From positions 1 to 64,000 of IMG/VR virus record IMGVR_UViG_3300015608_002982: a stretch of DNA of 64,000 nucleotides, one strand, 5' to 3'. Position numbers and translations under genes: made by a program. The DNA is from a virus. Its lineage: Duplodnaviria; Caudoviricetes. Shown in pieces: positions 25,443 to 55,161 of this stretch (positions are counted from its first letter, which is position 1; the number at the start of each line of letters is the position of its first letter). The notes under the pieces are model-generated. The model did not search any database and was not told the origin of the DNA. It was given only the letters and a program-made list of their open reading frames with translations.

Positions 25443-25485
25443 ACAACTATATATTAAATTTATTGCCTTTAATCATTTAATATAT

Positions 25486-26109
25486 ATGATTATGAGAAAC
25501 ATCAAAAAATACGAAGACTTCCTAAATGAAGAAGTCAATTTAAAGAAAGCTTTAACAACTGGTGCTTTAGCTGCTGGTATGATGTTGAGTAATCCAGTTT
25601 ATTCACAGACAAAAACAAATACAACAAAAACAGAGGAAACTTCTAAAAAAGACAACCTATATTACATATCAACATCTTCTAAATCAGGTCTTAATGGACC
25701 TTACAATAAAGATCCTGTTAAAAATATTAAATTCGCAGTTACACCTTATGTTGTTGATACATTAGGTTTGAGTTTGGTAGAGTTAGAAAAAATTTATTTA
25801 AAAGCTCTTGAGACTGCCAAGATAAAACTATTATTATCTAGTAGTTTAAAAGATAAAAAAACATTTGATTATAAATCAAATGAAAATGGTATTATTGGTG
25901 GTATAGTTTCAATTGAAGAACTTCGTAGACAAGGTCCTGAATTTAGTAGTGATAAAGATTTATACATATCTTTTAGTTTTACTTGTGATGGTAATGAATA
26001 TGTTGTTGGTATAGAATGTTATCTCTCTGCTGCAAAAAGTGGAAATATCCCCTATAATGCTATAGGTGTTACAAAGGTATGTTGTGGTCCTTGGGAGCCA
26101 TTTGAATAA
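25486..26109 (+). CDS. CTS-bearing protein with internal signal-peptide-like segment
   Basis: MRNIKKYEDFLNEE then VNLKKALTTGALAAGMMLSNPVYS-Q. Confidence 0.65.
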   Translation: MIMRNIKKYEDFLNEEVNLKKALTTGALAAGMMLSNPVYSQTKTNTTKTEETSKKDNLYYISTSSKSGLNGPYNKDPVKNIKFAVTPYVVDTLGLSLVELEKIYLKALETAKIKLLLSSSLKDKKTFDYKSNENGIIGGIVSIEELRRQGPEFSSDKDLYISFSFTCDGNEYVVGIECYLSAAKSGNIPYNAIGVTKVCCGPWEPFE

Positions 26110-26511
26110 CTACCACCTCTTTTCTGTATCTTTTGGTGTGTGTCCTATTTTACTTACTACTAACTCATAATAAGCATCATTTACTCCAAAATCAGATGAA
26201 TAGACATAAAGATTAAACTCTTTTAGGTGTTCATTTACATCACGAATTAACTCAAATATTTTTGGCTCAACGTAATGTAAGACCGGTAAGTCACTTGGAA
26301 AATCTATATCTTTATGATTAAAAACCACAATAAAACATTTGTCATCTTTTTCTACTAATGATGATTGTAGAGAATCTTCAACATAATATTCTAGCGAAGG
26401 AAACTCATCAGTTATGTGATAAAGTATTTCGGATAAGTCTTGGTGTGTAATACCAAAATCATTTTTTAATGAAAATCCTTCAGTTATAAATTGTGAGTAT
26501 TTCTTTATCAT
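26110..26511 (-). CDS. Hypothetical protein with CTS-like N-terminus
   Basis: MIKKYSQFITE. Confidence 0.6.
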   Translation of the reverse strand: MIKKYSQFITEGFSLKNDFGITHQDLSEILYHITDEFPSLEYYVEDSLQSSLVEKDDKCFIVVFNHKDIDFPSDLPVLHYVEPKIFELIRDVNEHLKEFNLYVYSSDFGVNDAYYELVVSKIGHTPKDTEKRW

Positions 26512-26633
26512 TAAAACATTTTAATTGATTGTATAAAAGCTACTTGTAGTCTTATCCAAGCTCTTTTTCTCCAAGGAAGTTCCTTGAACTCTTTTGTTAA
26601 AAAAATATCTTCTAATTCCGTAGTTCTATATAT
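26511..26633 (-). CDS. Possible 40-aa ORF with ATA start (IYRTTELEDIFLTKEFKELPWRKRAWIRLQVAFIQSIKMF)
   Basis: Fills the intergenic gap and its stop abuts the next start; no ATG in frame. Confidence 0.35.
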   Translation of the reverse strand: MYRTTELEDIFLTKEFKELPWRKRAWIRLQVAFIQSIKMF

Positions 26634-26636
26634 TTA

Positions 26637-26668
26637 TTTGTATATTTTACTTATTTACCTTATATTTG
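26637..26668 (+). promoter_or_regulatory. Bacteroidota sigma-A-type promoter
   Basis: TTTG - 20 nt - TATATTTG. Confidence 0.75.
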
Positions 26669-26687
26669 TATTCTAAATCACTACAAA

Positions 26688-27140
26688 ATGGAAGGTCGTA
26701 AACTTAAAAACTCAGATGCTCTCAAATTTATGTTTGCTGGTAAATCAATTTTTACTTTTCTGAATACTCAGTCTGGTAACCGATTTACTTTTAAGATTAA
26801 AGCCGCTAAAGATTCTAACCTTTTCTTTGTTAGTGTTCTTACACGACCTGATACATATACTTATATTGGAACTTGCATTGAAGGTAACTTCAAGCACGGT
26901 CGTAAATCCTCAATCTCAGAAGATGCTCAAAGTGTAAAAGTTTTTCAATATGTTTTAAGTAAACTAAAGGCTGGTAATTTAGCTGAGTTTATTGAGGTTT
27001 GGCACGAAGGTCATTGTGGTAAATGTGGTAAACGATTGACTGTACCTTCTTCTATTGAGAATGGTTTGGGACCAGAGTGTATTAAAACTCTTTCAAAGAT
27101 GGAAAAAAGAGATAAATTTTTACAATTAATTTTGGGATAA
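26688..27140 (+). CDS. DUF6011-like zinc-binding protein
   Basis: GHCGKCGKRLTVPSSIENGLGPEC. Confidence 0.75.
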   Translation: MEGRKLKNSDALKFMFAGKSIFTFLNTQSGNRFTFKIKAAKDSNLFFVSVLTRPDTYTYIGTCIEGNFKHGRKSSISEDAQSVKVFQYVLSKLKAGNLAEFIEVWHEGHCGKCGKRLTVPSSIENGLGPECIKTLSKMEKRDKFLQLILG

Positions 27141-27141
27141 T

Positions 27142-27690
27142 ATGAGTGCTTTTATTAGTATATTAGTTTCTTTAACTCCTTTTATTTTTATCATTTATTA
27201 CTTTAGAATGATAAAAACAACAAAGTACATTTCTACCGACCTCCAAAGTGGTCAACGTTGTTATTCATGTAAACAAGATATTGAGATTGATAGTGATGAA
27301 CTTCTTGATATATTAGTACATAATAAAACTAACTATCGTCTGTGTAAATCTTGTCTTCGTGATGAAAAACTTGATAATCTAATTAATAAAAACAAATCAT
27401 CAAAGTTTCATAAACTAAAACTTTTACTTGTTAGTAAAGATTTTGATAAAATATCTAAAATCTTAATAGGGTCTATGGTCTTTTTACTTTGTGTTGACTT
27501 ATTATTAAAGATGTTATTTGATGTAAAGTGGTTTTCTTACTTCTATAACGCTTTTTTAGCTTGTTATTGGTCAATTATGATTTATAGACATAAAGTTATT
27601 TCAATAAAAAACCCTCAGAATAATCTGAGGGTTTTAGGGCCGACCGGAATTAACACGGTTCAGTTTCCACCAACTTATTTTTCTAAATAA
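27142..27690 (+). CDS. Membrane protein with CxxC zinc motifs
   Basis: N-terminal TM segment, CYSC..CKSC, two further hydrophobic segments. Confidence 0.55.
   Translation: MSAFISILVSLTPFIFIIYYFRMIKTTKYISTDLQSGQRCYSCKQDIEIDSDELLDILVHNKTNYRLCKSCLRDEKLDNLINKNKSSKFHKLKLLLVSKDFDKISKILIGSMVFLLCVDLLLKMLFDVKWFSYFYNAFLACYWSIMIYRHKVISIKNPQNNLRVLGPTGINTVQFPPTYFSK
27606..27635. terminator. Intrinsic terminator, strongest for the minus strand
   Basis: AAAAAACCCTCAG-AATAAT-CTGAGGGTTTT. Confidence 0.85.
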
Positions 27691-27893
27691 GTAAACTTAT
27701 TCTTTTCAATGTAGTTTATTATACCACGGATGAAAAGCTCTTTAATTACAGACTCACAGGTATATGTTTTGTCGTAATAAAATTCTATGTTATTTCTAAC
27801 ATTTTCCATTCCAACTTTATATAAAACTTCCAAAGGAAAGTTTTTATTTTCCACATTTCTTTCTAAAAGAAGTTCTTTAACTATGTGTATCAT
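27675..27893 (-). CDS. Hypothetical protein
   Basis: 72-aa ORF co-oriented with uvsX and the Hc1-like gene. Confidence 0.5.
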   Translation of the reverse strand: MIHIVKELLLERNVENKNFPLEVLYKVGMENVRNNIEFYYDKTYTCESVIKELFIRGIINYIEKNKFTYLEK

Positions 27894-27912
27894 TAGAATG
27901 GATTATTTTTTA

Positions 27913-28089
27913 TTACTTGCTTGCTTTACCTTCTTCTGTAGATGCTGCTCTATAAGGAGTAACTAATTTCTTAATTTCACCTAAAGCTTTACGAGCTCTA
28001 GCATCTGAAACTTTACTTGTAGCTGTGTGGTTTTTTTCAAACTCAGCCCAAAGTTGTTTTAATTGTTCAAAAATTTCATTCTTGTTCAT
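27913..28089 (-). CDS. Histone H1-like Hc1 family nucleoid protein (58 aa; not in ORF track)
   Basis: MNKNEIFEQLKQLWAEFEKNHTATSKVSDARARKALGEIKKLVTPYRAAS matches the ARARKA..EI.KL...R..S pattern. Confidence 0.7.
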   Translation of the reverse strand: MNKNEIFEQLKQLWAEFEKNHTATSKVSDARARKALGEIKKLVTPYRAASTEEGKASK

Positions 28090-28138
28090 TTTATTTACAT
28101 TTTATTTTTATAACCTCTTAGTATTAAAGAGGTTTTAA

Positions 28139-29368
28139 TTATCCAAAAATATCATCAGCATCAGAGGCATCAGTGAATCCGTTTGAATCATCTTCATCAC
28201 TTCCTATCATTTCATTAAACTGACTTTCTACTTTGTCCATTTCATCAATTGATTTGAAACGGAAGTAGTCATTAACAATTGGTGCCATTTTTTCTAAAAC
28301 TTCTTGTGTAAAGATTTCAGAATTAAAAAGTTGTTTTGTGGTCACAGTTTTATCAAGGTGTGATACATACCATCTGTTTCCACCTGGTGTAAATTTCATC
28401 TCACCTGTTGATTTATCAACTTCCATTTTACCCTGAGCAATACCAATTTGTTCAAAAAATTCTGGACGACAAAAAGCATCTAAGCCAGTATAAGGATTTA
28501 GACCATTTAAAAAAGATATATCAAATCTAATTTTCTTAGGTTTAGCTAAACGATTCTTTTGAGTTTTGAAGAGAACAGATATACCTGACTGACCTAAGTC
28601 CATATCATCTTCTTCACCAGTTTTTAATTTAGATTTAGAAAGAAAACCTAAAACACTTGCGGAATAAACTAGACCCATCCCACCCTTGCTAATCTCTTTT
28701 GGATAGAGATCTTGTGTTAGATATGTATGATTGCAGCATACCATAGGAATATCTAAATAACCTAAATCAGAACTAATACTTCTGAAAAGAGCATTTAATT
28801 GTTTTGCTCTTGTCATATCTTGTTTAATATCCCCTTTTAGTAAGTCCGCCTTTTCTTTATTAGAAGACATCATACCAATTGAATCTAGTACAATTAAAAT
28901 TTTTGGAATTTCATATCCACCCATTTTAGCCTCTTTTAACTCATCTAATAACTGAGTTAATGAGATATTGATATCTTCAACTTTGTTTGATCTTATTAAT
29001 CTAAATTTATCAGTGCTATTATCAATACCCATTTTAGTGATACCCTCTAAATCAATAGAGTTTTCTGTATCAATGTAGATTACAGAGTATCCATCTTTTT
29101 GTGCCGACTTACAAATAGAGTAAGCGATAAATGATTTACCTGCCCCTGATTCACCTAATAGACCAAAAATACGACCTGCTAAAATACCACCACCAACTAA
29201 TTTAGCAGATAAGGCAGCATCTAGTAAATAAACACCGGTAGAGATGTAACTCCTTTCTTTGATTTCTTTTTCAATTTGAATTGGAACGGATTTAGCGATA
29301 TTATCTAAAATTGTTCCTACTTTACTAAATTCAAACTTCTTTGTTTCTTTTCCTGTTGTTTTTGCCAT
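28139..29368 (-). CDS. uvsX: UvsX/RecA-like recombinase
   Basis: ISTGVYLLD, GESGAGKS Walker A, IDTEN, IVLDS, GGMG, KNR. Confidence 0.88.
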   Translation of the reverse strand: MAKTTGKETKKFEFSKVGTILDNIAKSVPIQIEKEIKERSYISTGVYLLDAALSAKLVGGGILAGRIFGLLGESGAGKSFIAYSICKSAQKDGYSVIYIDTENSIDLEGITKMGIDNSTDKFRLIRSNKVEDINISLTQLLDELKEAKMGGYEIPKILIVLDSIGMMSSNKEKADLLKGDIKQDMTRAKQLNALFRSISSDLGYLDIPMVCCNHTYLTQDLYPKEISKGGMGLVYSASVLGFLSKSKLKTGEEDDMDLGQSGISVLFKTQKNRLAKPKKIRFDISFLNGLNPYTGLDAFCRPEFFEQIGIAQGKMEVDKSTGEMKFTPGGNRWYVSHLDKTVTTKQLFNSEIFTQEVLEKMAPIVNDYFRFKSIDEMDKVESQFNEMIGSDEDDSNGFTDASDADDIFG

Positions 29369-29485
29369 TTTAATAATTTTTATTTTATAATTTATATATT
29401 AATAATGAATTCTCCCCTTTTAACTTTTTTATAAATTTTCACCATATTTTTCTTAAAGGAGGAAATATAATTTAATATATAGTAT

Positions 29486-30556
29486 ATGACTAAATATGAA
29501 TTTTTAGAAAAGGCGAGAGAAAAACATGGATATAAGTATCAATATCCTAATCTAAAAGATAAGATATTATCAACTGATGATATAGATATAGTTTATAATG
29601 GCGTTTTGTATAAACAAAAGGTTGTTAAACATATCCTACTAGGTAGATGTCCTGAAAAAAACACACCTGCTAAAACAACTGAGCAGTTTATTAAGGAAGC
29701 AAAGCAAGTTTGGGGTGATAAATATGACTACTCGTTGACCGAGTATAAAGGTGCATTAAAAAAATTAAAAATTATATATGATGGTATTATATTTGAACAG
29801 ACTGCCTCAAGTCACCTTAAATATGCACCAGAGTTAAGAATGAATAAAGAATATTTTATAAAGCTTGCTAAGTATAAATGGGGTGATAGGTATGATTACT
29901 CACTAGTTGAATATACGGATTGTAAATCAAAGGTAAAAATAGTTCTTAAAGAGACGAATGAATTATTTGAACAGACACCGTTTAATCATTTACAATATTC
30001 ACCAGAAAATATAAATAAAAGAAAATCAACAGAACAATTTATTAATGAATCAAACGCAGTTCATGATTTTAGGTATAACTATGATAAATCTGACTATATT
30101 TCTAATCAAACAAAAGTTACAATAACTTGCCCGGTTCATGGTGACTTTACACAGAGACCTTTATCACATATACAAGGGAATGGATGTCCAAATTGTAATG
30201 AATCTAAAGGAGAAAAAGAAATAGCTAAGTTTTTAGATAAATATAATATTTTCTACGAGAGACAAAAAAAATTTCATGATTGTCGTAATATATTTGAACT
30301 GCCTTTTGACTTTTACATACCAAGTGCTAGAACCTGTATAGAGTTTGATGGAAAACAACACTTTCAACCTATGAAGTTTTTTGGAGGATTAAAAGCATAT
30401 GAATCTCTTAAAATAAATGATAAAATAAAAGAGAATTATTGTGAGGATAATTACATAAATCTTATAAGGATAAGATACGATCAGTTTGATGAAATTTACC
30501 AGATATTGTGGAATAATTTAAAGAACTTGATAGTTCTTAACAATAAAATCAACTAA
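29486..30556 (+). CDS. Homing endonuclease: DUF723-like repeats + PD-(D/E)XK nuclease
   Basis: Repeated WGDKYDYSLxEY, CPVHG, GCPNC, SKGEKEI, LPFDFY..IEFDGKQH. Confidence 0.8.
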   Translation: MTKYEFLEKAREKHGYKYQYPNLKDKILSTDDIDIVYNGVLYKQKVVKHILLGRCPEKNTPAKTTEQFIKEAKQVWGDKYDYSLTEYKGALKKLKIIYDGIIFEQTASSHLKYAPELRMNKEYFIKLAKYKWGDRYDYSLVEYTDCKSKVKIVLKETNELFEQTPFNHLQYSPENINKRKSTEQFINESNAVHDFRYNYDKSDYISNQTKVTITCPVHGDFTQRPLSHIQGNGCPNCNESKGEKEIAKFLDKYNIFYERQKKFHDCRNIFELPFDFYIPSARTCIEFDGKQHFQPMKFFGGLKAYESLKINDKIKENYCEDNYINLIRIRYDQFDEIYQILWNNLKNLIVLNNKIN

Positions 30557-31141
30557 TTCATCGCAGAATTTTTGTATATCTGCTTTCATATCATCTGTGA
30601 TTTCAAATGATTCTTTCATGTATTGAGATAAAAACTTAACCTTATCAAAGTCTCTATCATCAAGAGCTTGGTCAATAAGTGCGTTTATTTCAGACTTAGA
30701 CATATCTTCATAGTCTTTTTCTTTAGCTTGCTTCCATTCTTCACCTTCGGATTCTGCTGACTTTTTAATAGCTTCTAAAAATTCTACAAAGAAATCAAGT
30801 GACTTATCAAGTCCTTCCTTAAATGATTTTTCAATAAATATTGATTTTGAGTTTTTTAATGATTTATCAAATTTTTCAAGAACTAAGTCTTTAAATTCTT
30901 CAGATAAATCAGGATTAGAATTTACAGATTGAACAAACATATTAAACAAAAGCTCAATTAAGCTATCAGCTCCTTCACTTAGGTTTTCAACATCACCAGT
31001 CATTCTTATATTTTTCTCCATAGAAAAAATAGGTTCTAACATAGCATAAAGTGATAATTTAAGATTTTCAAGCTTTCTCTTGAAATCATCATCATCTTTA
31101 ATACCTTCTAAAAATAGTTTATATGTTTTAATTCTTTTCAT
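30518..31141 (-). CDS. CTS-bearing protein with IDEAL/UVR-like motif
   Basis: MKRIKTYKLFLEG; INALIDQALDDRDFDKVKFL. Confidence 0.6.
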   Translation of the reverse strand: MKRIKTYKLFLEGIKDDDDFKRKLENLKLSLYAMLEPIFSMEKNIRMTGDVENLSEGADSLIELLFNMFVQSVNSNPDLSEEFKDLVLEKFDKSLKNSKSIFIEKSFKEGLDKSLDFFVEFLEAIKKSAESEGEEWKQAKEKDYEDMSKSEINALIDQALDDRDFDKVKFLSQYMKESFEITDDMKADIQKFCDELVDFIVKNYQVL

Positions 31142-31143
31142 AA

Positions 31144-31368
31144 TTATTCTTCTGGTTTTCCAGGTATTTCTAAATATTGGTCTAAAACTTCTTTAGTTTC
31201 AATATCTGATTCATCGTATTTTACTTCATCATCATATAAACTTACCTTCTTATCAGAAATAAGTTTTTGTAAAAGAGGTTCTTGATTAAATAAACCAACT
31301 TCTTCATCACTAAGTTTTATAGTCTTTGTGTGTGATTCTTTAATGAAATCTGCGTACTTCTTTATCAT
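31144..31368 (-). CDS. Small CTS-bearing protein
   Basis: MIKKYADFIKES. Confidence 0.6.
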   Translation of the reverse strand: MIKKYADFIKESHTKTIKLSDEEVGLFNQEPLLQKLISDKKVSLYDDEVKYDESDIETKEVLDQYLEIPGKPEE

Positions 31369-32125
31369 AATCTGCTGTTGTTTGTGGTTTTATTTTATAA
31401 TATAATATAACTGCCAATATTAAGATATTAGTAGCATAGTTTAATAATAATGGTAAATCTAATTTATCATACACATAAGCAAGTGCGAATATTTCACCAA
31501 ATGCCCAAAGTAAAACAAATCCCCATGAAATACCATATGAGTGTTTGTCTTTGAATGATTGCCAAGCCTGTGGAAGACCACATATAGCTAAACATATAGA
31601 ACCTAACCAACCAAGTATTTCAAAAATTGACATACCTTTTGTTTGTTCTGATATACCGGCTGATGATAACTCAGATAAGTCTTTTTGTTCAATTTTATAA
31701 TTATACTTAGATTCAACGTGACTAGATAGTCTATCAAATAATTCTTTATATTCTTCTTGACTACCTGATTCTAATTTACTTTGAATCTCTTGTAATATAT
31801 TACTTAACTCTACATCTTTTGGTGTAAGTTCTGTTTTTCTAATATCTGATAATTCAATTACTTGATTCTTTGCAACAACTACACCGTCTTTAGCCATTGG
31901 ATTTGTTAGCTCAGTTTTTATGGGAACTTGTGCTTGTAAGTTTGGAGAACTTGCTAATAAAGAAGCACCAAGTGTCGCACCAAGTATTCCTTTTTTCAAA
32001 TCAAGTTCTTCTTTTACTTTAGTAACTTTTACTTTAGGATCTGGCATCCAACCAAAAGTCTTTTTAGAAGGTTTTGGATTAAAATTGGACTTAATGAATT
32101 GATTATATGTTTTAATATTTTTCAT
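31340..32125 (-). CDS. CTS + signal-peptide-like segment + PQ-loop/SemiSWEET domain
   Basis: MKNIKTYNQFI; LKKGILGATLGASLLASSPNLQA-Q; GWLGSICLAICGLPQAWQS..GISWGF three-TM PQ-loop. Confidence 0.7.
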   Translation of the reverse strand: MKNIKTYNQFIKSNFNPKPSKKTFGWMPDPKVKVTKVKEELDLKKGILGATLGASLLASSPNLQAQVPIKTELTNPMAKDGVVVAKNQVIELSDIRKTELTPKDVELSNILQEIQSKLESGSQEEYKELFDRLSSHVESKYNYKIEQKDLSELSSAGISEQTKGMSIFEILGWLGSICLAICGLPQAWQSFKDKHSYGISWGFVLLWAFGEIFALAYVYDKLDLPLLLNYATNILILAVILYYKIKPQTTADYDKEVRRFH

Positions 32126-32136
32126 TATGATATATA

Positions 32137-33036
32137 TTAATTTGATTTAACAGTTTTTCCAAACCAATTTGAACTTGTTATAAACATCTCACAAAAAGAT
32201 ATTTTATAATCAATTGGATTCATCTCATCATCCATTATCCAACCTTTGTAAAATCTAATTTTATCCATTCTATTATTATGACTTTTTTCAGGTATGTATA
32301 TCTCTACACTATATCCTTTATCTGTCATAAAATCTTGTATTCTTTCTAAAGTTTCTTTTATATCATATATATTGAATGGTGACCTATAGCCTTTTCTAAA
32401 ATCATCAATAGTTACTTTAATTTTAATTTCACCTCTTTTAAAAGAAGGTATTTCATCAGCTTTAGTTCTAAAACCAATATCATTTAGTTCTAAGCAAATA
32501 TCTCTTATCTCTTGAACCTCTGGTTCTTCTTCAATTAATGATTCCTCAACCGGTTCATCTTCAATTAAATCAGCCGCCTTATTAATATTAACTTTAATTC
32601 TTTCAATTCTTCTGGCTTCCTTGTCATTTTCATATACTGACTTAACTAACTCAGCTAATTGTTTAAGAATCTTTGGCTTTGCTTTACAATTTTCCGGTTC
32701 ACCTTCACATATAACATTTAAGCCATAAAACTCTTTATCACTATATCTTGCTAACTTTTTACTAATTAAAAGATCTTGAGATTGTTCATCAAATCCATTT
32801 CCTCTCAATGAAATAACAGACCATAATTTAATAGGTGTATCTTCAAAATCAACTATCCATTTATCAATTTCAAAGTTATTTCCCTCTCTATTTCCAGGAT
32901 CATAAGTTATCTTATATGGTGAAATACCTTTAACCTTTTTTAGACGAGCAATATACTCTAAAGCAATCTCATCATCGGCTGATGGTTTGCTTTTGAAAAG
33001 GTCAAAAAATCCTTCATATGTTTTAAGACTTCTCAC
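32137..33036 (-). CDS. CTS-bearing protein, paralog of 33521..34333
   Basis: MRSLKTYEGFFDLFK; RIERIKVNINKAADLI. Confidence 0.6.
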   Translation of the reverse strand: MRSLKTYEGFFDLFKSKPSADDEIALEYIARLKKVKGISPYKITYDPGNREGNNFEIDKWIVDFEDTPIKLWSVISLRGNGFDEQSQDLLISKKLARYSDKEFYGLNVICEGEPENCKAKPKILKQLAELVKSVYENDKEARRIERIKVNINKAADLIEDEPVEESLIEEEPEVQEIRDICLELNDIGFRTKADEIPSFKRGEIKIKVTIDDFRKGYRSPFNIYDIKETLERIQDFMTDKGYSVEIYIPEKSHNNRMDKIRFYKGWIMDDEMNPIDYKISFCEMFITSSNWFGKTVKSN

Positions 33037-33524
33037 TATTTTGGTAGTTTTATTTTTATTGTAATATTTCTTTTTCTATTAGGTGAATCTGTTTTACTTA
33101 TTGTTTTGCCAATCATTGTCATAAATTCTGACCACTCTTTATCACTGGAACTACCTTCATCAAACCCCCAACCAATAAAAAATGACATCTTACAATTATA
33201 AATTTCTAATTTAGATTTACAATCTAATAATAGCTCATTTACTTCATTGTCCGATATTGAATTAGGTGAGTAAGTCATTTCAAATGATATTGCTGATTTA
33301 TTACCTGAGAAATTAAAGTCTCCAATTTTATGATTTGATACTTCTGATTTTCCCCAAATAACATCATCTGATGCAAAAATACCACCTAGTATATTACCTT
33401 TCTCAATTCTTGACTCGTCAATAATATCATATAAACATTCAATAATATCGTTATATGTTACTTCAACTTTTTCCTTTTTTTTGAAAAGGTCAAAAAATCC
33501 TTCGTATGTTTTTAAGTTTTTCAT
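33036..33524 (-). CDS. CTS-bearing protein
   Basis: MKNLKTYEGFFDLFK; 24-nt identity with the 5' end of the neighbour. Confidence 0.6.
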   Translation of the reverse strand: MKNLKTYEGFFDLFKKKEKVEVTYNDIIECLYDIIDESRIEKGNILGGIFASDDVIWGKSEVSNHKIGDFNFSGNKSAISFEMTYSPNSISDNEVNELLLDCKSKLEIYNCKMSFFIGWGFDEGSSSDKEWSEFMTMIGKTISKTDSPNRKRNITIKIKLPK

Positions 33525-34333
33525 TTGAATTTATTAGGAAAGATGTGTCTCCATTCATGTCCTTGAGGAACATCAGATGTTTTTACACCAAATATCTTTT
33601 TTTCTGGACAAGTATCTTTACCGTCCATTAAGAAGTTGTTATTACAAGCCCAAACTTCAACATTTCTTTGTAATAATTGACCAACTGAAAAAGGAAATCT
33701 AATACCAGTTTCATTTTCAATATTAGTAATTCTACCATCCGGTGATTTAGTTACAACTATTTCCAATCTTGGGTTTCTTTTATTAGTGAATTTAACTTCT
33801 CTTTCGTGTAATCCTTCATCAATTAAGTCCGCTGATGGATTAATTTCAGTTTGTATTCTTTCAATTCTTTTTCTTTCTCTATCCTCATTATAGATTTTAT
33901 CTACTAATTGAAATAATTTTTTACGATAAGATTCTTTGGATCTAATTCTCTCAGCTAATCCTGAGTTATTACCAATAAAAAATTTCCAAGGATTTTTACA
34001 CTTTTCATAGCCAACCATTACTCCGTTTTGATTAACTAAAGTGTGTCTATCATTTGATATTACAATGTCAACATCATCAAATCTAACTAAATATATTTTA
34101 CTGAAATATTCAGTTTCTTCGTTATTTCTATGATCTGGTGTTGGATCGCCTACAAATTTACTCATCCAAGATGGTAGTTGGGCAGCGGTATTCATTATCT
34201 CATCTATCTGATAAGGATTTCTGTCTTTAACTTTTTCAAGACGGTGTATAATATCTAGTGTGATTTTATCATCACCGGTATCTTTCTTAAAATAATCTAA
34301 GAAACCTTCGTTATATTTCTTTAAGTGTTTCAT
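33521..34333 (-). CDS. CTS-bearing protein
   Basis: MKHLKKYNEGFLDYFK; RIERIQTEINPSADLI. Confidence 0.6.
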   Translation of the reverse strand: MKHLKKYNEGFLDYFKKDTGDDKITLDIIHRLEKVKDRNPYQIDEIMNTAAQLPSWMSKFVGDPTPDHRNNEETEYFSKIYLVRFDDVDIVISNDRHTLVNQNGVMVGYEKCKNPWKFFIGNNSGLAERIRSKESYRKKLFQLVDKIYNEDRERKRIERIQTEINPSADLIDEGLHEREVKFTNKRNPRLEIVVTKSPDGRITNIENETGIRFPFSVGQLLQRNVEVWACNNNFLMDGKDTCPEKKIFGVKTSDVPQGHEWRHIFPNKFK

Positions 34334-34341
34334 TATACTAT

Positions 34342-34806
34342 TTATTTATTTTCAATTATCATGAAATCAAACTCGCCATTTTTATGAGTTGATAATAAAA
34401 AGAAATAACCCATAGACTCAATTCTATATTGAACATCTTTAGTTATTTCAAAAAATTTATATAAATTATTATTTGGTACACCAAATACTCTTTGATTATC
34501 ACCTCTTTGTATATCGGTTGCAAAGTAACCATCTTTAAAAAATTCACTAAAAGAAACTTGAATTCCTTTATGAAGATTTGGTTGGCTTTCCCAATAGTTA
34601 GCCGGAATGTTGACAAATCCTTTAGTCAATTCATTACCAACTGGCATGAAATCTTGACCATCAAAAATCTTAAATGCTTTATATTTCAATGTATATTTAG
34701 CGTCACATTCTACATACTCAGATAAAATGTCGTGGAGTATTGATTCGTCAGAGAAAATATCTTCTTCGTTTGATTCATTGAATTTTTTTAAGTGTTTCAT
34801 TAACAC
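34342..34806 (-). CDS. CTS-bearing protein
   Basis: MKHLKKFNESNEE. Confidence 0.6.
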   Translation of the reverse strand: MLMKHLKKFNESNEEDIFSDESILHDILSEYVECDAKYTLKYKAFKIFDGQDFMPVGNELTKGFVNIPANYWESQPNLHKGIQVSFSEFFKDGYFATDIQRGDNQRVFGVPNNNLYKFFEITKDVQYRIESMGYFFLLSTHKNGEFDFMIIENK

Positions 34807-52227: not shown

Positions 52228-55161
52228 TTATAAGTCTTTTTGTTCAGATCTATATTTATCGTATCTATTTGCTATTTCAACTAAGAATTTATTTCTAACT
52301 ATATCTTCGTTTGTAAATTCATGCATATATAAATCATTCATTCCGTCTACCATCTTTATAAAGTCATTATATCCTGAGTCTCTTCTTTTAACATCATATT
52401 GTGATGTATCTCCCATCATTACTGCTTTTGAATCCTTACCTAAACGAGTTACCCATAACATAAGTTGTTTAATTGAAGCATTTTGGCAGTTATGAACCAA
52501 TATATTTTCAACAAAATAATTGTGATTACCATCAACCTCTATGTTATATACATAATCTGGTTCAGAATCTTCAATATTTACAATCTCGGTTGTTGATAAA
52601 TTTTTGTTATATGATATTCTATATAAACTATTATCAAAATTATTAGTATCACTATTCAATTTATAAGACATTGATGGGTGTATATATTTTGATATAATAT
52701 CAAACATTTTTAAAGAGTTAATTCTATTTAAACATAGTATTACACCTTTTGATGTTTTATAAATACTACTATCTAAACTGAATTTATTTTTCAATATTTT
52801 AGATAATACATTGACTTCCTCGTAACTCATGGAATTGGTTGAGAATGTTACAGACCCACTTGATTTTGAAATAGATCCATCATCCATATACCATATAGCT
52901 AAAGTTCTTTCTGTGAACCATCTACTTATCTCACTACTTATGAACTTCTTAGACCCATTATACATAGAGTTATAAAACTCATTTGATATATTTATAGATT
53001 TTGTTTGAAATCCACACTGCTCTTCACCTGTATATCCAGACTTTAAAGAATTTCTATATGATGATATTTCACCAAAAATATTTTTTTTGAAATTCATATA
53101 GTCATATTGTTTAATAGAATGATTTGTTAGTATTCTATATGACTTTTTAACTTGCTTATTTTGTAGTAATGATGAATCACCCAGACACATTCCTAAAATT
53201 ATATCATATGAGTCATTTGTAATAATTGTGGAATCATTTGTGTTATAGCCTTTATACCTACATATACTATCACCTATGTTTAAGTTGTCAACTTCAATCC
53301 ATTTAATTTCTCCATCTTTAAATATCGCAAATGGATGATTTTTTGTTGTCTTTATAGGTTTTATTCTATCCTTTGTATATATTTTAGTGATATTTTTTAT
53401 ACCATTTTCAAAAACTCCAGTTACTTTTCTATTTTCTAAAATTTTCATATCTTCATTCCAACTAGAAACATACACATCTTTACCTAATTTAAACATATTA
53501 ACGATATCTTTTATTCTAAGATAATTAAAAGATCCTCTAGTTCCATGTTTTGTAACAACCCTTGTGTCACCCGTGAAACACTCATCTAACAACATTATGC
53601 AATTGTCATAAGTTGATCCTCTCATGTAAGCTAAAGGTTCAAAACAAATTTCTTCAGTAGCAAACAAAAAGTCAATTGTTGGTTTTCCCAAAATTTTACA
53701 AAATGTTGTGTAATATGATTGTTTGTATGGATCTATTTTTTCTGCAATGTTACCAGGAAGTGCTCCTAAGTTTTCACCACTTTCCTGAATTGGCTTAGTG
53801 ATAATGATTTTTTCTATTTTTTTATCAGCTAATAATGCTAGAGCTGTGTAACAGGTTGTATATGTATTGTGTGTTACAATATAATCATTTGTCAAATAGA
53901 GATGAGATGGATTATCCACACTAATACACTGAGCTTTCTTTTTACCAATTAGTTTAGCAGATACTATATATCTAGTTGGTTTATATTTTGACTTTGGTTT
54001 TACTAATTTAAATTTTCTATTTAATGAAAATGGATTTATTTCCGAATTCATTTTTATAGTTATTTTATATGACGTTTTTCCATATATTTTTTCACCAGAT
54101 TTAATATAGTAACTATCTGATGGAGTGTGATCTGTTGCAACTCCACCTAGTGATTGAACCAACTCTTTAACATCATTGATTAATCTTTTGGATGTTGATG
54201 AGAAGCTTACAAAGGTACCATCTTTAGATACAGATCCGTCCGAATCCATCAGTCCTCTTAATATAGATATTCTATTTTCTATAGAATTGAATTTATAACA
54301 ATCCGGGATAAATTTTTCTTGTGAGAGTTTATTCCAAAGTCCTATTTTAGTTAAATATTGTTTAATTTTGTTTTCTCTTACTTCGGGTTCTTTTACCAAT
54401 GAGTAGTCATAACAACCTCTATAAATTACAGAAATTTCTTCATCAATTAAATTTTCAATACGTTCTACTATCTCTAAATCAGATGTCGTGAAATTAACAC
54501 TTCCTCTAAAACATCCATCTCCAATTAGGAATCCCATAATATATGGATCTATGTCTACTTTTATTTCGTTAAATTGAACAGGCTTTGTAATAGGAATTGT
54601 GTGGTTTATCCTACCTCTTTTAGTATAGAGTGTTTCTATAATTTCCGAAGTTGATTTAACACTTCCTTCCTTTTCATCTTTATGTCTACTTCTTTTACCA
54701 TTTATGGTTTTAGTCCATTTCCTATTATTTCTATCACTTTCGGTTTGAGTAAACCATAAATGGTCACCACAGCACTCTACTTTAGAACTATCAGAAAAAG
54801 TTAGCTCCCAAATATCTTTTTCACCTTGTGGATAAACTCCCGTGACAATTGTTGGTAAGCCATCAACAGAGATAACTCTATCACCTATTTGTATTTCACC
54901 CATCTTAACCCAACCATTTGGTGTTAAAATTGGTGAATCTAATGGTTGGGCTTTGCTTGTCCCGGCTGGCCCATGAACTACTGACAAAATATTGTTTCTT
55001 ATTCCTTTGTATAAGAGTTGTTGTTTATCAGATAAATGTACATTTGATTTTTGAAATTCCTCTTTAGTTAAAGAGTTCTTTTTTCTAAGATTCTTTTTGT
55101 ATTCAAATTCTTGAATTCCGTCCTGAATCTGACCGTTAAGTTCGCTTTTGTACTTGCTCAT
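52228..55161 (-). CDS. phoH: PhoH-family ATPase containing two inteins (about 251 aa after splicing)
   Basis: GPAGTSK/T Walker A, EPLAYMRGSTYDN, LLDE/CQN, TRLG, GDTSQYD, DIVRN. Confidence 0.9.
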   Translation of the reverse strand: MSKYKSELNGQIQDGIQEFEYKKNLRKKNSLTKEEFQKSNVHLSDKQQLLYKGIRNNILSVVHGPAGTSKAQPLDSPILTPNGWVKMGEIQIGDRVISVDGLPTIVTGVYPQGEKDIWELTFSDSSKVECCGDHLWFTQTESDRNNRKWTKTINGKRSRHKDEKEGSVKSTSEIIETLYTKRGRINHTIPITKPVQFNEIKVDIDPYIMGFLIGDGCFRGSVNFTTSDLEIVERIENLIDEEISVIYRGCYDYSLVKEPEVRENKIKQYLTKIGLWNKLSQEKFIPDCYKFNSIENRISILRGLMDSDGSVSKDGTFVSFSSTSKRLINDVKELVQSLGGVATDHTPSDSYYIKSGEKIYGKTSYKITIKMNSEINPFSLNRKFKLVKPKSKYKPTRYIVSAKLIGKKKAQCISVDNPSHLYLTNDYIVTHNTYTTCYTALALLADKKIEKIIITKPIQESGENLGALPGNIAEKIDPYKQSYYTTFCKILGKPTIDFLFATEEICFEPLAYMRGSTYDNCIMLLDECFTGDTRVVTKHGTRGSFNYLRIKDIVNMFKLGKDVYVSSWNEDMKILENRKVTGVFENGIKNITKIYTKDRIKPIKTTKNHPFAIFKDGEIKWIEVDNLNIGDSICRYKGYNTNDSTIITNDSYDIILGMCLGDSSLLQNKQVKKSYRILTNHSIKQYDYMNFKKNIFGEISSYRNSLKSGYTGEEQCGFQTKSINISNEFYNSMYNGSKKFISSEISRWFTERTLAIWYMDDGSISKSSGSVTFSTNSMSYEEVNVLSKILKNKFSLDSSIYKTSKGVILCLNRINSLKMFDIISKYIHPSMSYKLNSDTNNFDNSLYRISYNKNLSTTEIVNIEDSEPDYVYNIEVDGNHNYFVENILVHNCQNASIKQLMLWVTRLGKDSKAVMMGDTSQYDVKRRDSGYNDFIKMVDGMNDLYMHEFTNEDIVRNKFLVEIANRYDKYRSEQKDL
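52489..53580 (-). mobile_element. Class 1 (Cys1) intein with LAGLIDADG endonuclease, 364 aa
   Basis: Starts CFTGDT, TKNHPF, VYNIEV, ends LVHN/C; LGMCLGDS, IWYMDDG. Confidence 0.88.
53866..54951 (-). mobile_element. Class 3 (Ala1, WCT) intein with LAGLIDADG endonuclease, 362 aa
   Basis: Starts AQPL, block B DHLW, block F AQCISV, ends VTHN/T; MGFLIGDG, LRGLMDSDG. Confidence 0.85.

Follow-up and report, generated by a model that had tools for sequence, protein, structure and literature searches.

The 64,000-nucleotide window analyzed here is the first 64 kb of an 89-kb virus contig in IMG/VR that has 29% G+C and is about 45% complete according to CheckV. Two of its genes, which we call gene 1 and gene 2, encode proteins that begin with a short tag resembling the capsid targeting sequence (CTS) of phage T4, followed by a stretch resembling a bacterial signal peptide. 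An initial annotation had quoted these two starts, in the reading frames 25486-26109 (+ strand) and 32125-31340 (- strand), and both peptides are present in the sequence as they were given there. With middling confidence, we assign the contig to a huge T4-related phage of Bacteroidota in which genes 1 and 2 encode envelope proteins.

The two genes and their phage

A DNA-level comparison with 50,697 phage records found only two relatives of the contig, both of them uncultured phages (635 and 642 kb), and no cultured relative with virion proteomics was found in the phage collection. Genes on the contig encode a UvsX-like recombinase, tail-fiber proteins, and a 977-residue PhoH-like or terminase-like ATPase (52228-55161, - strand), whose residues 647-838 match a LAGLIDADG homing-endonuclease family and probably represent an intein. 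For comparison, we used W01, which is the whole 642-kb record, and G001, which is 140 kb out of a 143-kb IMG/VR contig. Genes were called by a simple scheme that takes the longest open reading frame, and tags and signals were recognized with hand-made regular expressions, so the counts below are approximate. Ordinary signal peptides encoded by W01 and G001 end in Ala, Ser, or Gly followed by Gln, or in a lipobox. Because such ends agree with the Gln rule of Bacteroidota (PMC5837995), a host from this phylum fits. No phage-encoded signal peptidase I was found in the contig or in two relatives.

Gene 1 (25492-26109, + strand) most likely starts at the third codon of its reading frame, because the copy in the protein database and all relatives begin there and because a promoter-like motif, TAATATATA (25478-25486, + strand), ends 5 nucleotides upstream. 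Its first 14 residues (25492-25533) form the tag, in which Tyr, Phe, Leu, and Glu have the spacing of the T4 CTS and the last two residues are Glu-Glu. The predicted signal peptide (25534-25605) comprises Val-Asn-Leu-Lys-Lys, a 13-residue core rich in Gly, Ala, and Thr, and Ser-Asn-Pro ahead of a predicted Ser|Gln cleavage site, with Val at -3 and Ser at -1. The mature part (25606-26109; 166 residues and the stop codon) contains four Cys residues. These are kept in the one distant homologue of the body that was found, as is the arrangement of tag and signal. The body matches no family in Pfam, PHROGs, or NCBIfam, and no structural look-alike in the ESM Atlas exceeded a TM-score of 0.45. AlphaFold models had a mean pLDDT of 38 for gene 1 and 48 for gene 2, which is too poor for fold searches. 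The gene 1 product would be a soluble, Cys-containing periplasmic protein.

In gene 2, the promoter-like motif likewise lies 5 nucleotides ahead of the start codon (32131-32139, - strand), and all further elements are on the same strand. The tag (residues 1-13; 32087-32125) keeps Tyr, Phe, and Ile, with Ser at the position of Glu. It is followed by a strongly basic linker of 27 residues (residues 14-40; 32006-32086), which ends in Glu-Glu and is confined to long-form members of the gene 2 family. The predicted signal peptide (residues 41-65; 31931-32005) opens with Leu-Asp-Leu-Lys-Lys, continues with a core similar to that of gene 1, and ends at a predicted Ala|Gln site, with Leu at -3 and Ala at -1. 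An acidic domain comes next (residues 66-165; 31631-31930), which is helical in a low-confidence model and predicted to be periplasmic. The remainder (31340-31630) encodes a three-helix membrane domain of the PQ-loop or SemiSWEET type, a basic C-terminal tail, and the stop codon. Residues 168-218 match PQ-loop family PF04193 (E = 9e-12; 45 bits vs. a cut-off of 22), and residues 172-246 span the whole NCBIfam SemiSWEET_2 model NF037968 with E = 9e-8, at 32 bits, which is below the subfamily cut-off of 80.

Net charges along the gene 2 protein are +8 in the N-terminal 45 residues ahead of the signal, -5 in the next 100 residues, +1 and -1 in the loops, and +2 in the tail. Together with the positive-inside rule, this pattern implies a signal with its N-terminus inside and an acidic domain in the periplasm, behind which the three helices run out-in-out-in, as SWEET-type bundles are known to do. 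The product is thus predicted to be an inner-membrane SemiSWEET-type protein with a periplasmic N-terminal domain, and this topology means that the signal is needed during the protein's own membrane insertion.

Tag and signal are kept in all 121 members of the gene 2 family, and pattern matching places a cleavage site in 115 of the 121 (107 Ala|Gln and eight Ser|Gln). Most members are of a short form, with the tag directly adjoining the signal and His at the Phe position. The long form, to which the window copy belongs, has an N-terminal addition of 29 residues that supplies a new tag and the very basic linker, and the older tag position has decayed, with Glu-Glu kept there. Because a fresh tag was gained in front while the old position decayed, what is selected seems to be the presence of a tag right at the N-terminus. 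The homologue in W01 carries a canonical tag. For each of two further homologues, P0041 and P0064, the longest contig given measures 816,658 bp, which is either one phage contig or a concatemer or misassembly; to our knowledge, a single phage contig of this length would exceed known huge phages.

A conserved module with a signal peptide

The first 40 residues of gene 1 were compared by phmmer with 1.84 billion representative proteins (E ≤ 0.001). They matched 63 protein clusters, in 61 of which the match lies within the first 42 residues of the protein. The matched proteins range from 35 to 479 residues, and their bodies are unrelated. In an alignment of 56 module proteins, Phe10, Glu13, and Glu14 are invariant, and Met1, Lys5, Tyr7, Asn12, Asn16, Lys19, Ala25, Leu26, and Pro35 are at least 90% conserved. 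By tblastn against the 50,697 phage records, the module was matched only in the uncultured 642-kb record, where the same arrangement is found in three genes, one of them the gene 2 homologue. One module gene is located between topoisomerase genes on another IMG/VR phage contig.

Recognizable bodies behind the module include TonB C-terminal domains (E = 1e-16), Hint domains, and a C-terminal sorting domain of the type IX secretion system (T9SS). Another body family shares a C-terminal domain that appears barrel-like by eye, without profile or fold support; no untagged homologue of this body was found, and all eight full-length matches carry the module. A metagenomic protein of 314 residues, P0132, has a tag and lipoprotein signal twice, at residue 1 and near residue 147, and looks like two tandem module genes that were fused or read through.

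Search matches and body homologues together provided 68 module starts. Sixty-three of these are of the signal peptidase I type, 53 with Gln behind a small residue (position -3 was not scored in this count), and the remaining five have a lipobox at the same place. The strongest evidence from sequence is that one and the same tag and core are combined with either cleavage class, and we therefore take the hydrophobic part to be a working Sec signal. Export by Sec is also indicated by the TonB, Hint, T9SS sorting, and barrel-like bodies, all of which need it. The n-region has Lys-Lys or Arg-Lys at 92-99% of module starts, the core is uncharged and weakly hydrophobic with a median of 14 residues, and the c-region Ser-Asn-Pro-x-x-Ser|Gln is conserved, with variable sequence beyond the site.

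Coincidence is a poor explanation for these signals. A crude pattern (Lys or Arg, an uncharged core of 10-19 residues, small-x-small, Gln) occurs elsewhere in these phage proteins at about 0.0016 per 45-residue window, so that about 0.03 signals would be expected by chance behind the 18 tags of the contig, and two are observed. The initial annotation's claim that real Sec-type signal peptides obeying the Bacteroidota Gln rule (PMC5837995, PMC10653852) lie behind a T4-like motif is borne out.

The same annotation called the signals cryptic, in the sense that cleavage would expose them, and this part is not supported. The signals are not at the extreme N-terminus, with 14 residues in front of that of gene 1 and 40 in front of that of gene 2. 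N-terminal extensions of such length are known on working Sec signals (PMC2805444). Even with nothing removed, the proteins carry a neutral to positive charge ahead of the core (+8 in gene 2), and its median of +1 is the same as that after a cut behind the first Glu.

The tag, T4-type head genes, and a promoter-like motif

The sequence of the T4 CTS is available (PMC8442874). Targeting depends on its residues 4 and 7, and processing on its residues 8 and 10 (PMC9026906). The phage tag matches the T4 sequence at these four key residues: Tyr, Phe, Ile/Leu/Val, and Glu. A strict pattern with these residues in the T4 spacing is found in 18 of the 106 genes on the contig, 33 of the 987 in W01, and nine of the 166 in G001. 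A looser pattern, [IL]-K-x-[YF]-x-x-F, opens 140 of the 987 W01 genes, compared with 1.9% at internal methionines. Both synonymous codons of Tyr and both of Phe occur among the tags, which argues that selection acts on the tag as a peptide. In the module, Tyr (T4 position 4) is 97% and Phe (T4 position 7) 100% conserved. The Ile/Leu-x-Glu processing site reads Leu-Asn-Glu in gene 1. In gene 2, Ser replaces Glu, and the next candidate site, Val-Lys-Glu, is 26 residues further on. The residue at P3 ahead of Glu varies among Val, Thr, Ile, Cys, and Leu in the module.

A Pfam family is assigned to only about 20 of the 122 tagged W01 proteins. The families are NUDIX, methyltransferases, SET, GNAT, ankyrin, PPK2, RNA ligases, a CCA-type nucleotidyltransferase, and ClpP, the last of which is probably a chance match of the loose pattern. 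Families of polymerases, helicases, and virion structure are absent from the 25 Pfam families listed for tagged proteins. A role of the tag in marking capsid cargo is therefore plausible. Membrane helices are predicted in 9% of tagged and 14% of untagged proteins, a difference that is not significant (p = 0.14).

Several tagged genes have individual features. Within the window, seven consecutive tagged genes, three of them paralogous (32137, 33036, and 33521), occupy 30518-34806 (- strand), and this run resembles the hypervariable internal-protein loci of T-even phages. A tagged protein of 185 residues in G001 (90121-90678, + strand) has a soluble N-terminal domain and two very hydrophobic C-terminal helices in a holin-like layout; its tag must be cytoplasmic. 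Two W01 paralogues (95990-96634 and 544849-545472, both - strand) share a 170-residue domain and combine the tag with a glycine-zipper-like membrane helix that has no cleavage motif; we classify them as a variant in which a signal-anchor follows the tag.

G001 has a head module of the T4 type, with matches to Portal_T4 (E = 1.5e-57) and Gp23 (E = 8.6e-29), and open reading frames of W01 are collinear with it and have similar N-termini. A 714-residue G001 protein weakly matches the T4 prohead protease family, Peptidase_S77; the two relatives to which this comparison was applied score 20-23 bits, below the cut-off of 27. In both genomes (G001 62725-64869; W01 225272-227371), the weak Peptidase_S77 domain opens a protein of about 700 residues, the long rest of which is coiled-coil-like; this protein may be a fusion of protease and scaffold. 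The G001 capsid protein has Ile-Asn-Glu about where T4 gp23 is cut after Leu-Thr-Glu, as aligned by eye from a weak local BLAST match, and Phe-Ile-Asn-Glu is found on several tags. A phmmer search of a relative's capsid protein against PDB chains gave no match. The gene directly behind the G001 major capsid gene (66703-67092) encodes a small protein that has a tag and an NFACT-R_1 RNA-binding domain (E = 9e-17).

The motif TAATATATA has 37 sites on the 89-kb contig, compared with about 16 expected from base composition. Sites fall into two spacing classes, either 4-6 nucleotides or about 17-30 nucleotides ahead of ATG, and transcripts from the former class would be leaderless or nearly so. Many genes, head genes of relatives among them, have the motif 4-5 or about 20-35 nucleotides upstream. 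This motif is probably the main, and perhaps late, promoter of the phage. Genes for homing endonucleases and uvsX have it in front as well, so it is not diagnostic of when a gene is expressed.

Proposed export of tagged proteins and comparison with known systems

Our preferred reading, held with moderate confidence and drawn from sequence patterns, is direct export in the infected cell, in which case the tag is a conserved extension at the N-terminus of phage signal peptides that make up a class of their own. About 40 residues at the start form a single module, composed of a 14-residue amphipathic tag, the near-invariant Glu-Glu, and a Sec signal peptide, and a tag of the same kind opens roughly a tenth of the proteins of this phage lineage. 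Module proteins would be exported by the host Sec machinery of the very cell that synthesizes them. Their tag would remain cytoplasmic, and tag and signal would be cut off in one piece by the host's signal peptidase I, or by signal peptidase II in lipobox variants. Tag and weak core might make export post-translational, perhaps with the protein held back by a phage partner that reads the tag. We favor direct export because the N-terminus is not charge-masked, because extended Sec signals are known, and because SemiSWEET-type, T9SS, and barrel-like proteins are of a kind that a producing cell would naturally export, and would be odd cargo for a phage head.

Several observations fit direct export poorly. 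The Glu-Glu junction is 98% conserved and looks like a site of the gp21 type, and acidic residues are unusual beside the n-region of a signal peptide. A plain export signal would not need such weak cores: the best 10-residue Kyte-Doolittle value is 1.7 in tag-linked cores vs. 3.1 in 17 ordinary signal peptides from W01 and G001 (p about 5e-10), and the fraction of Gly, Ala, Ser, and Thr is 0.71 vs. 0.29 in the same set (p about 1e-10). The likeness of the tag to the T4 CTS also weighs on this side. So does the promoter-like motif of genes 1 and 2, which is found 25-35 nucleotides before the portal, protease, and capsid genes of relatives. Direct export leaves the Glu-Glu junction and the low hydrophobicity without explanation.

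The initial annotation had proposed a two-step route. In this route, the precursor enters the prohead by means of its tag and is cut at Glu-Glu by the head protease, and the trimmed protein then reaches the next cell with the DNA and is exported there by Sec. We regard this as rather unlikely, and mainly conceivable for soluble cargo such as the gene 1 product. The tag contains the residues that T4 uses for targeting (Tyr, Phe) and for processing (Ile/Leu/Val, Glu) (PMC9026906). The T4-type portal, the Gp23 capsid protein, and the weak gp21-like protease domain of relatives are also as this route would need, as are the Ile-Asn-Glu of a relative's capsid protein at the T4 gp23 cut, placed by eye, and the constancy of Glu-Glu. 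A weak core would keep the precursor soluble and let it escape the signal recognition particle, and the tagged proteins annotated by Pfam are effector-like enzymes. However, a canonical module is present on a SemiSWEET-type protein with three transmembrane helices in the 642-kb relative, and a degenerate one on gene 2 and more than 100 homologues, and proteins that insert co-translationally could hardly be stored in a head. For gene 2, delivery by way of the head is very unlikely, because a three-helix protein of this type needs its signal during its own insertion. In addition, P3 ahead of Glu varies, the short form of gene 2 has His in place of the targeting Phe, a few copies per cell would be of little use for T9SS-secreted or barrel-like bodies, and the full-length N-terminus has no masking charge to remove. 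A search of the literature for ejected proteins in which a propeptide precedes a signal peptide gave no relevant result.

Other explanations assign the tag or the core a different task. The tag might be a docking helix that binds another phage partner, such as a holdase, a membrane-associated assembly site, or a regulator, before cleavage by signal peptidase, or the released peptide of tag and signal might itself be the functional product. This is doubtful but agrees with the selection of the tag as a peptide, with its renewal at the extreme N-terminus of the long gene 2 form after the old one decayed, and with the loose tags in W01, some of which are on proteins with C-terminal or anchor-type membrane helices. 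Against it, the partner is hypothetical, and docking alone does not explain the Glu-Glu junction. An uncleaved stretch, serving as signal-anchor, as a releasable anchor similar to signal-anchor-release (SAR) domains, or as a glycine-zipper oligomerization helix, is improbable. The high Gly, Ala, Ser, and Thr content of the core would suit it, and SAR domains share this composition; the two W01 paralogues with a Gly-rich helix and no cleavage motif are also compatible. It conflicts with the conserved Ser-Asn-Pro-x-x-Ser|Gln, with lipobox variants at the same place, and with the variable sequence beyond. We give very little credence to a signal for twin-arginine translocation (Tat) or to a start-codon artefact. 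Tat signals do have similar, weakly hydrophobic cores rich in Gly and Ala, but the module has Lys-Lys instead of twin arginine and matches no NCBIfam Tat model, and lipobox and barrel-like cargo need Sec. As to the artefact, an internal start would turn the stretch into an ordinary N-terminal signal, but gene 1 has no ATG, GTG, or TTG between tag and core. A single TTG at this place in gene 2 is not general. Internal starts in general were rejected, given the conservation of the tag at the protein level and the position of the promoter-like motif directly before its ATG.

If direct export is correct, the module represents an undescribed class of signal peptides, with a nearly fixed 40-residue start on many envelope proteins, a conserved acidic extension, and a weak core. 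It also offers a sequence handle for finding secreted and membrane proteins of uncultured Bacteroidota phages. TonB-like and possibly barrel-like module proteins may alter receptors or block superinfection. Because the tag here sits on proteins that must enter a membrane, it provides a sharp test for the popular idea that N-terminal tags of huge phages are capsid-loading signals. If the two-step route were true instead, the module would give bacterial viruses their first described bipartite targeting signal, as far as the searched literature goes, and proteins a new route to the periplasm. Envelope proteins would arrive ready-made with the injected DNA, and the newly infected cell would export them to its periplasm or outer membrane.

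Among known systems, SemiSWEET and other PQ-loop proteins resemble the gene 2 body, which has three helices, a Pro-Gln motif, and the PF04193 and full-length NF037968 matches. Gene 2 differs in the tag, signal peptide, and 100-residue acidic domain placed in front, and in its score below the NCBIfam subfamily cut-off. The T4 CTS, found on the internal proteins IPI-III and Alt, is likewise an N-terminal peptide (about 10-14 residues) shared by unrelated bodies. As in the strict form of the phage tag, Tyr and Phe are three residues apart and Ile/Leu/Val-x-Glu follows, and the phage lineage also has T4-type head genes. Unlike the CTS, the tag described here precedes a Sec signal, is present on membrane and secreted proteins, and in its loose form opens about a tenth of genes.

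Bipartite presequences for the thylakoid lumen and the mitochondrial intermembrane space have a first address that one protease removes, exposing a bacterial-type signal that is cut by a type I signal peptidase. They follow the same logic as the two-step route, but belong to import systems of organelles. Another parallel is the extended signal peptide region (ESPR) of autotransporters, in which a conserved motif common to a class of cargo precedes a working Sec signal and is thought to tune the route or speed of export (PMC2805444). The YSIRK and KxYKxGKxW signals of Gram-positive bacteria are extended signals of the same kind. The phage module has no sequence similarity to these families, is phage-encoded, and has a motif that also opens many proteins lacking a signal peptide; Pfam families for ESPR and YSIRK matched none of the 56 module proteins, nor genes 1 and 2 at E values up to 1. 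Ordinary signals cleaved by signal peptidase I in Bacteroidota (PMC5837995, PMC10653852) share with the module a basic n-region, a hydrophobic core, small residues at -3 and -1, and the preference for Gln at +1. The module signal differs from them in its position behind 14-45 extra residues, in its far weaker core, and in a conservation that extends almost residue by residue across unrelated proteins.

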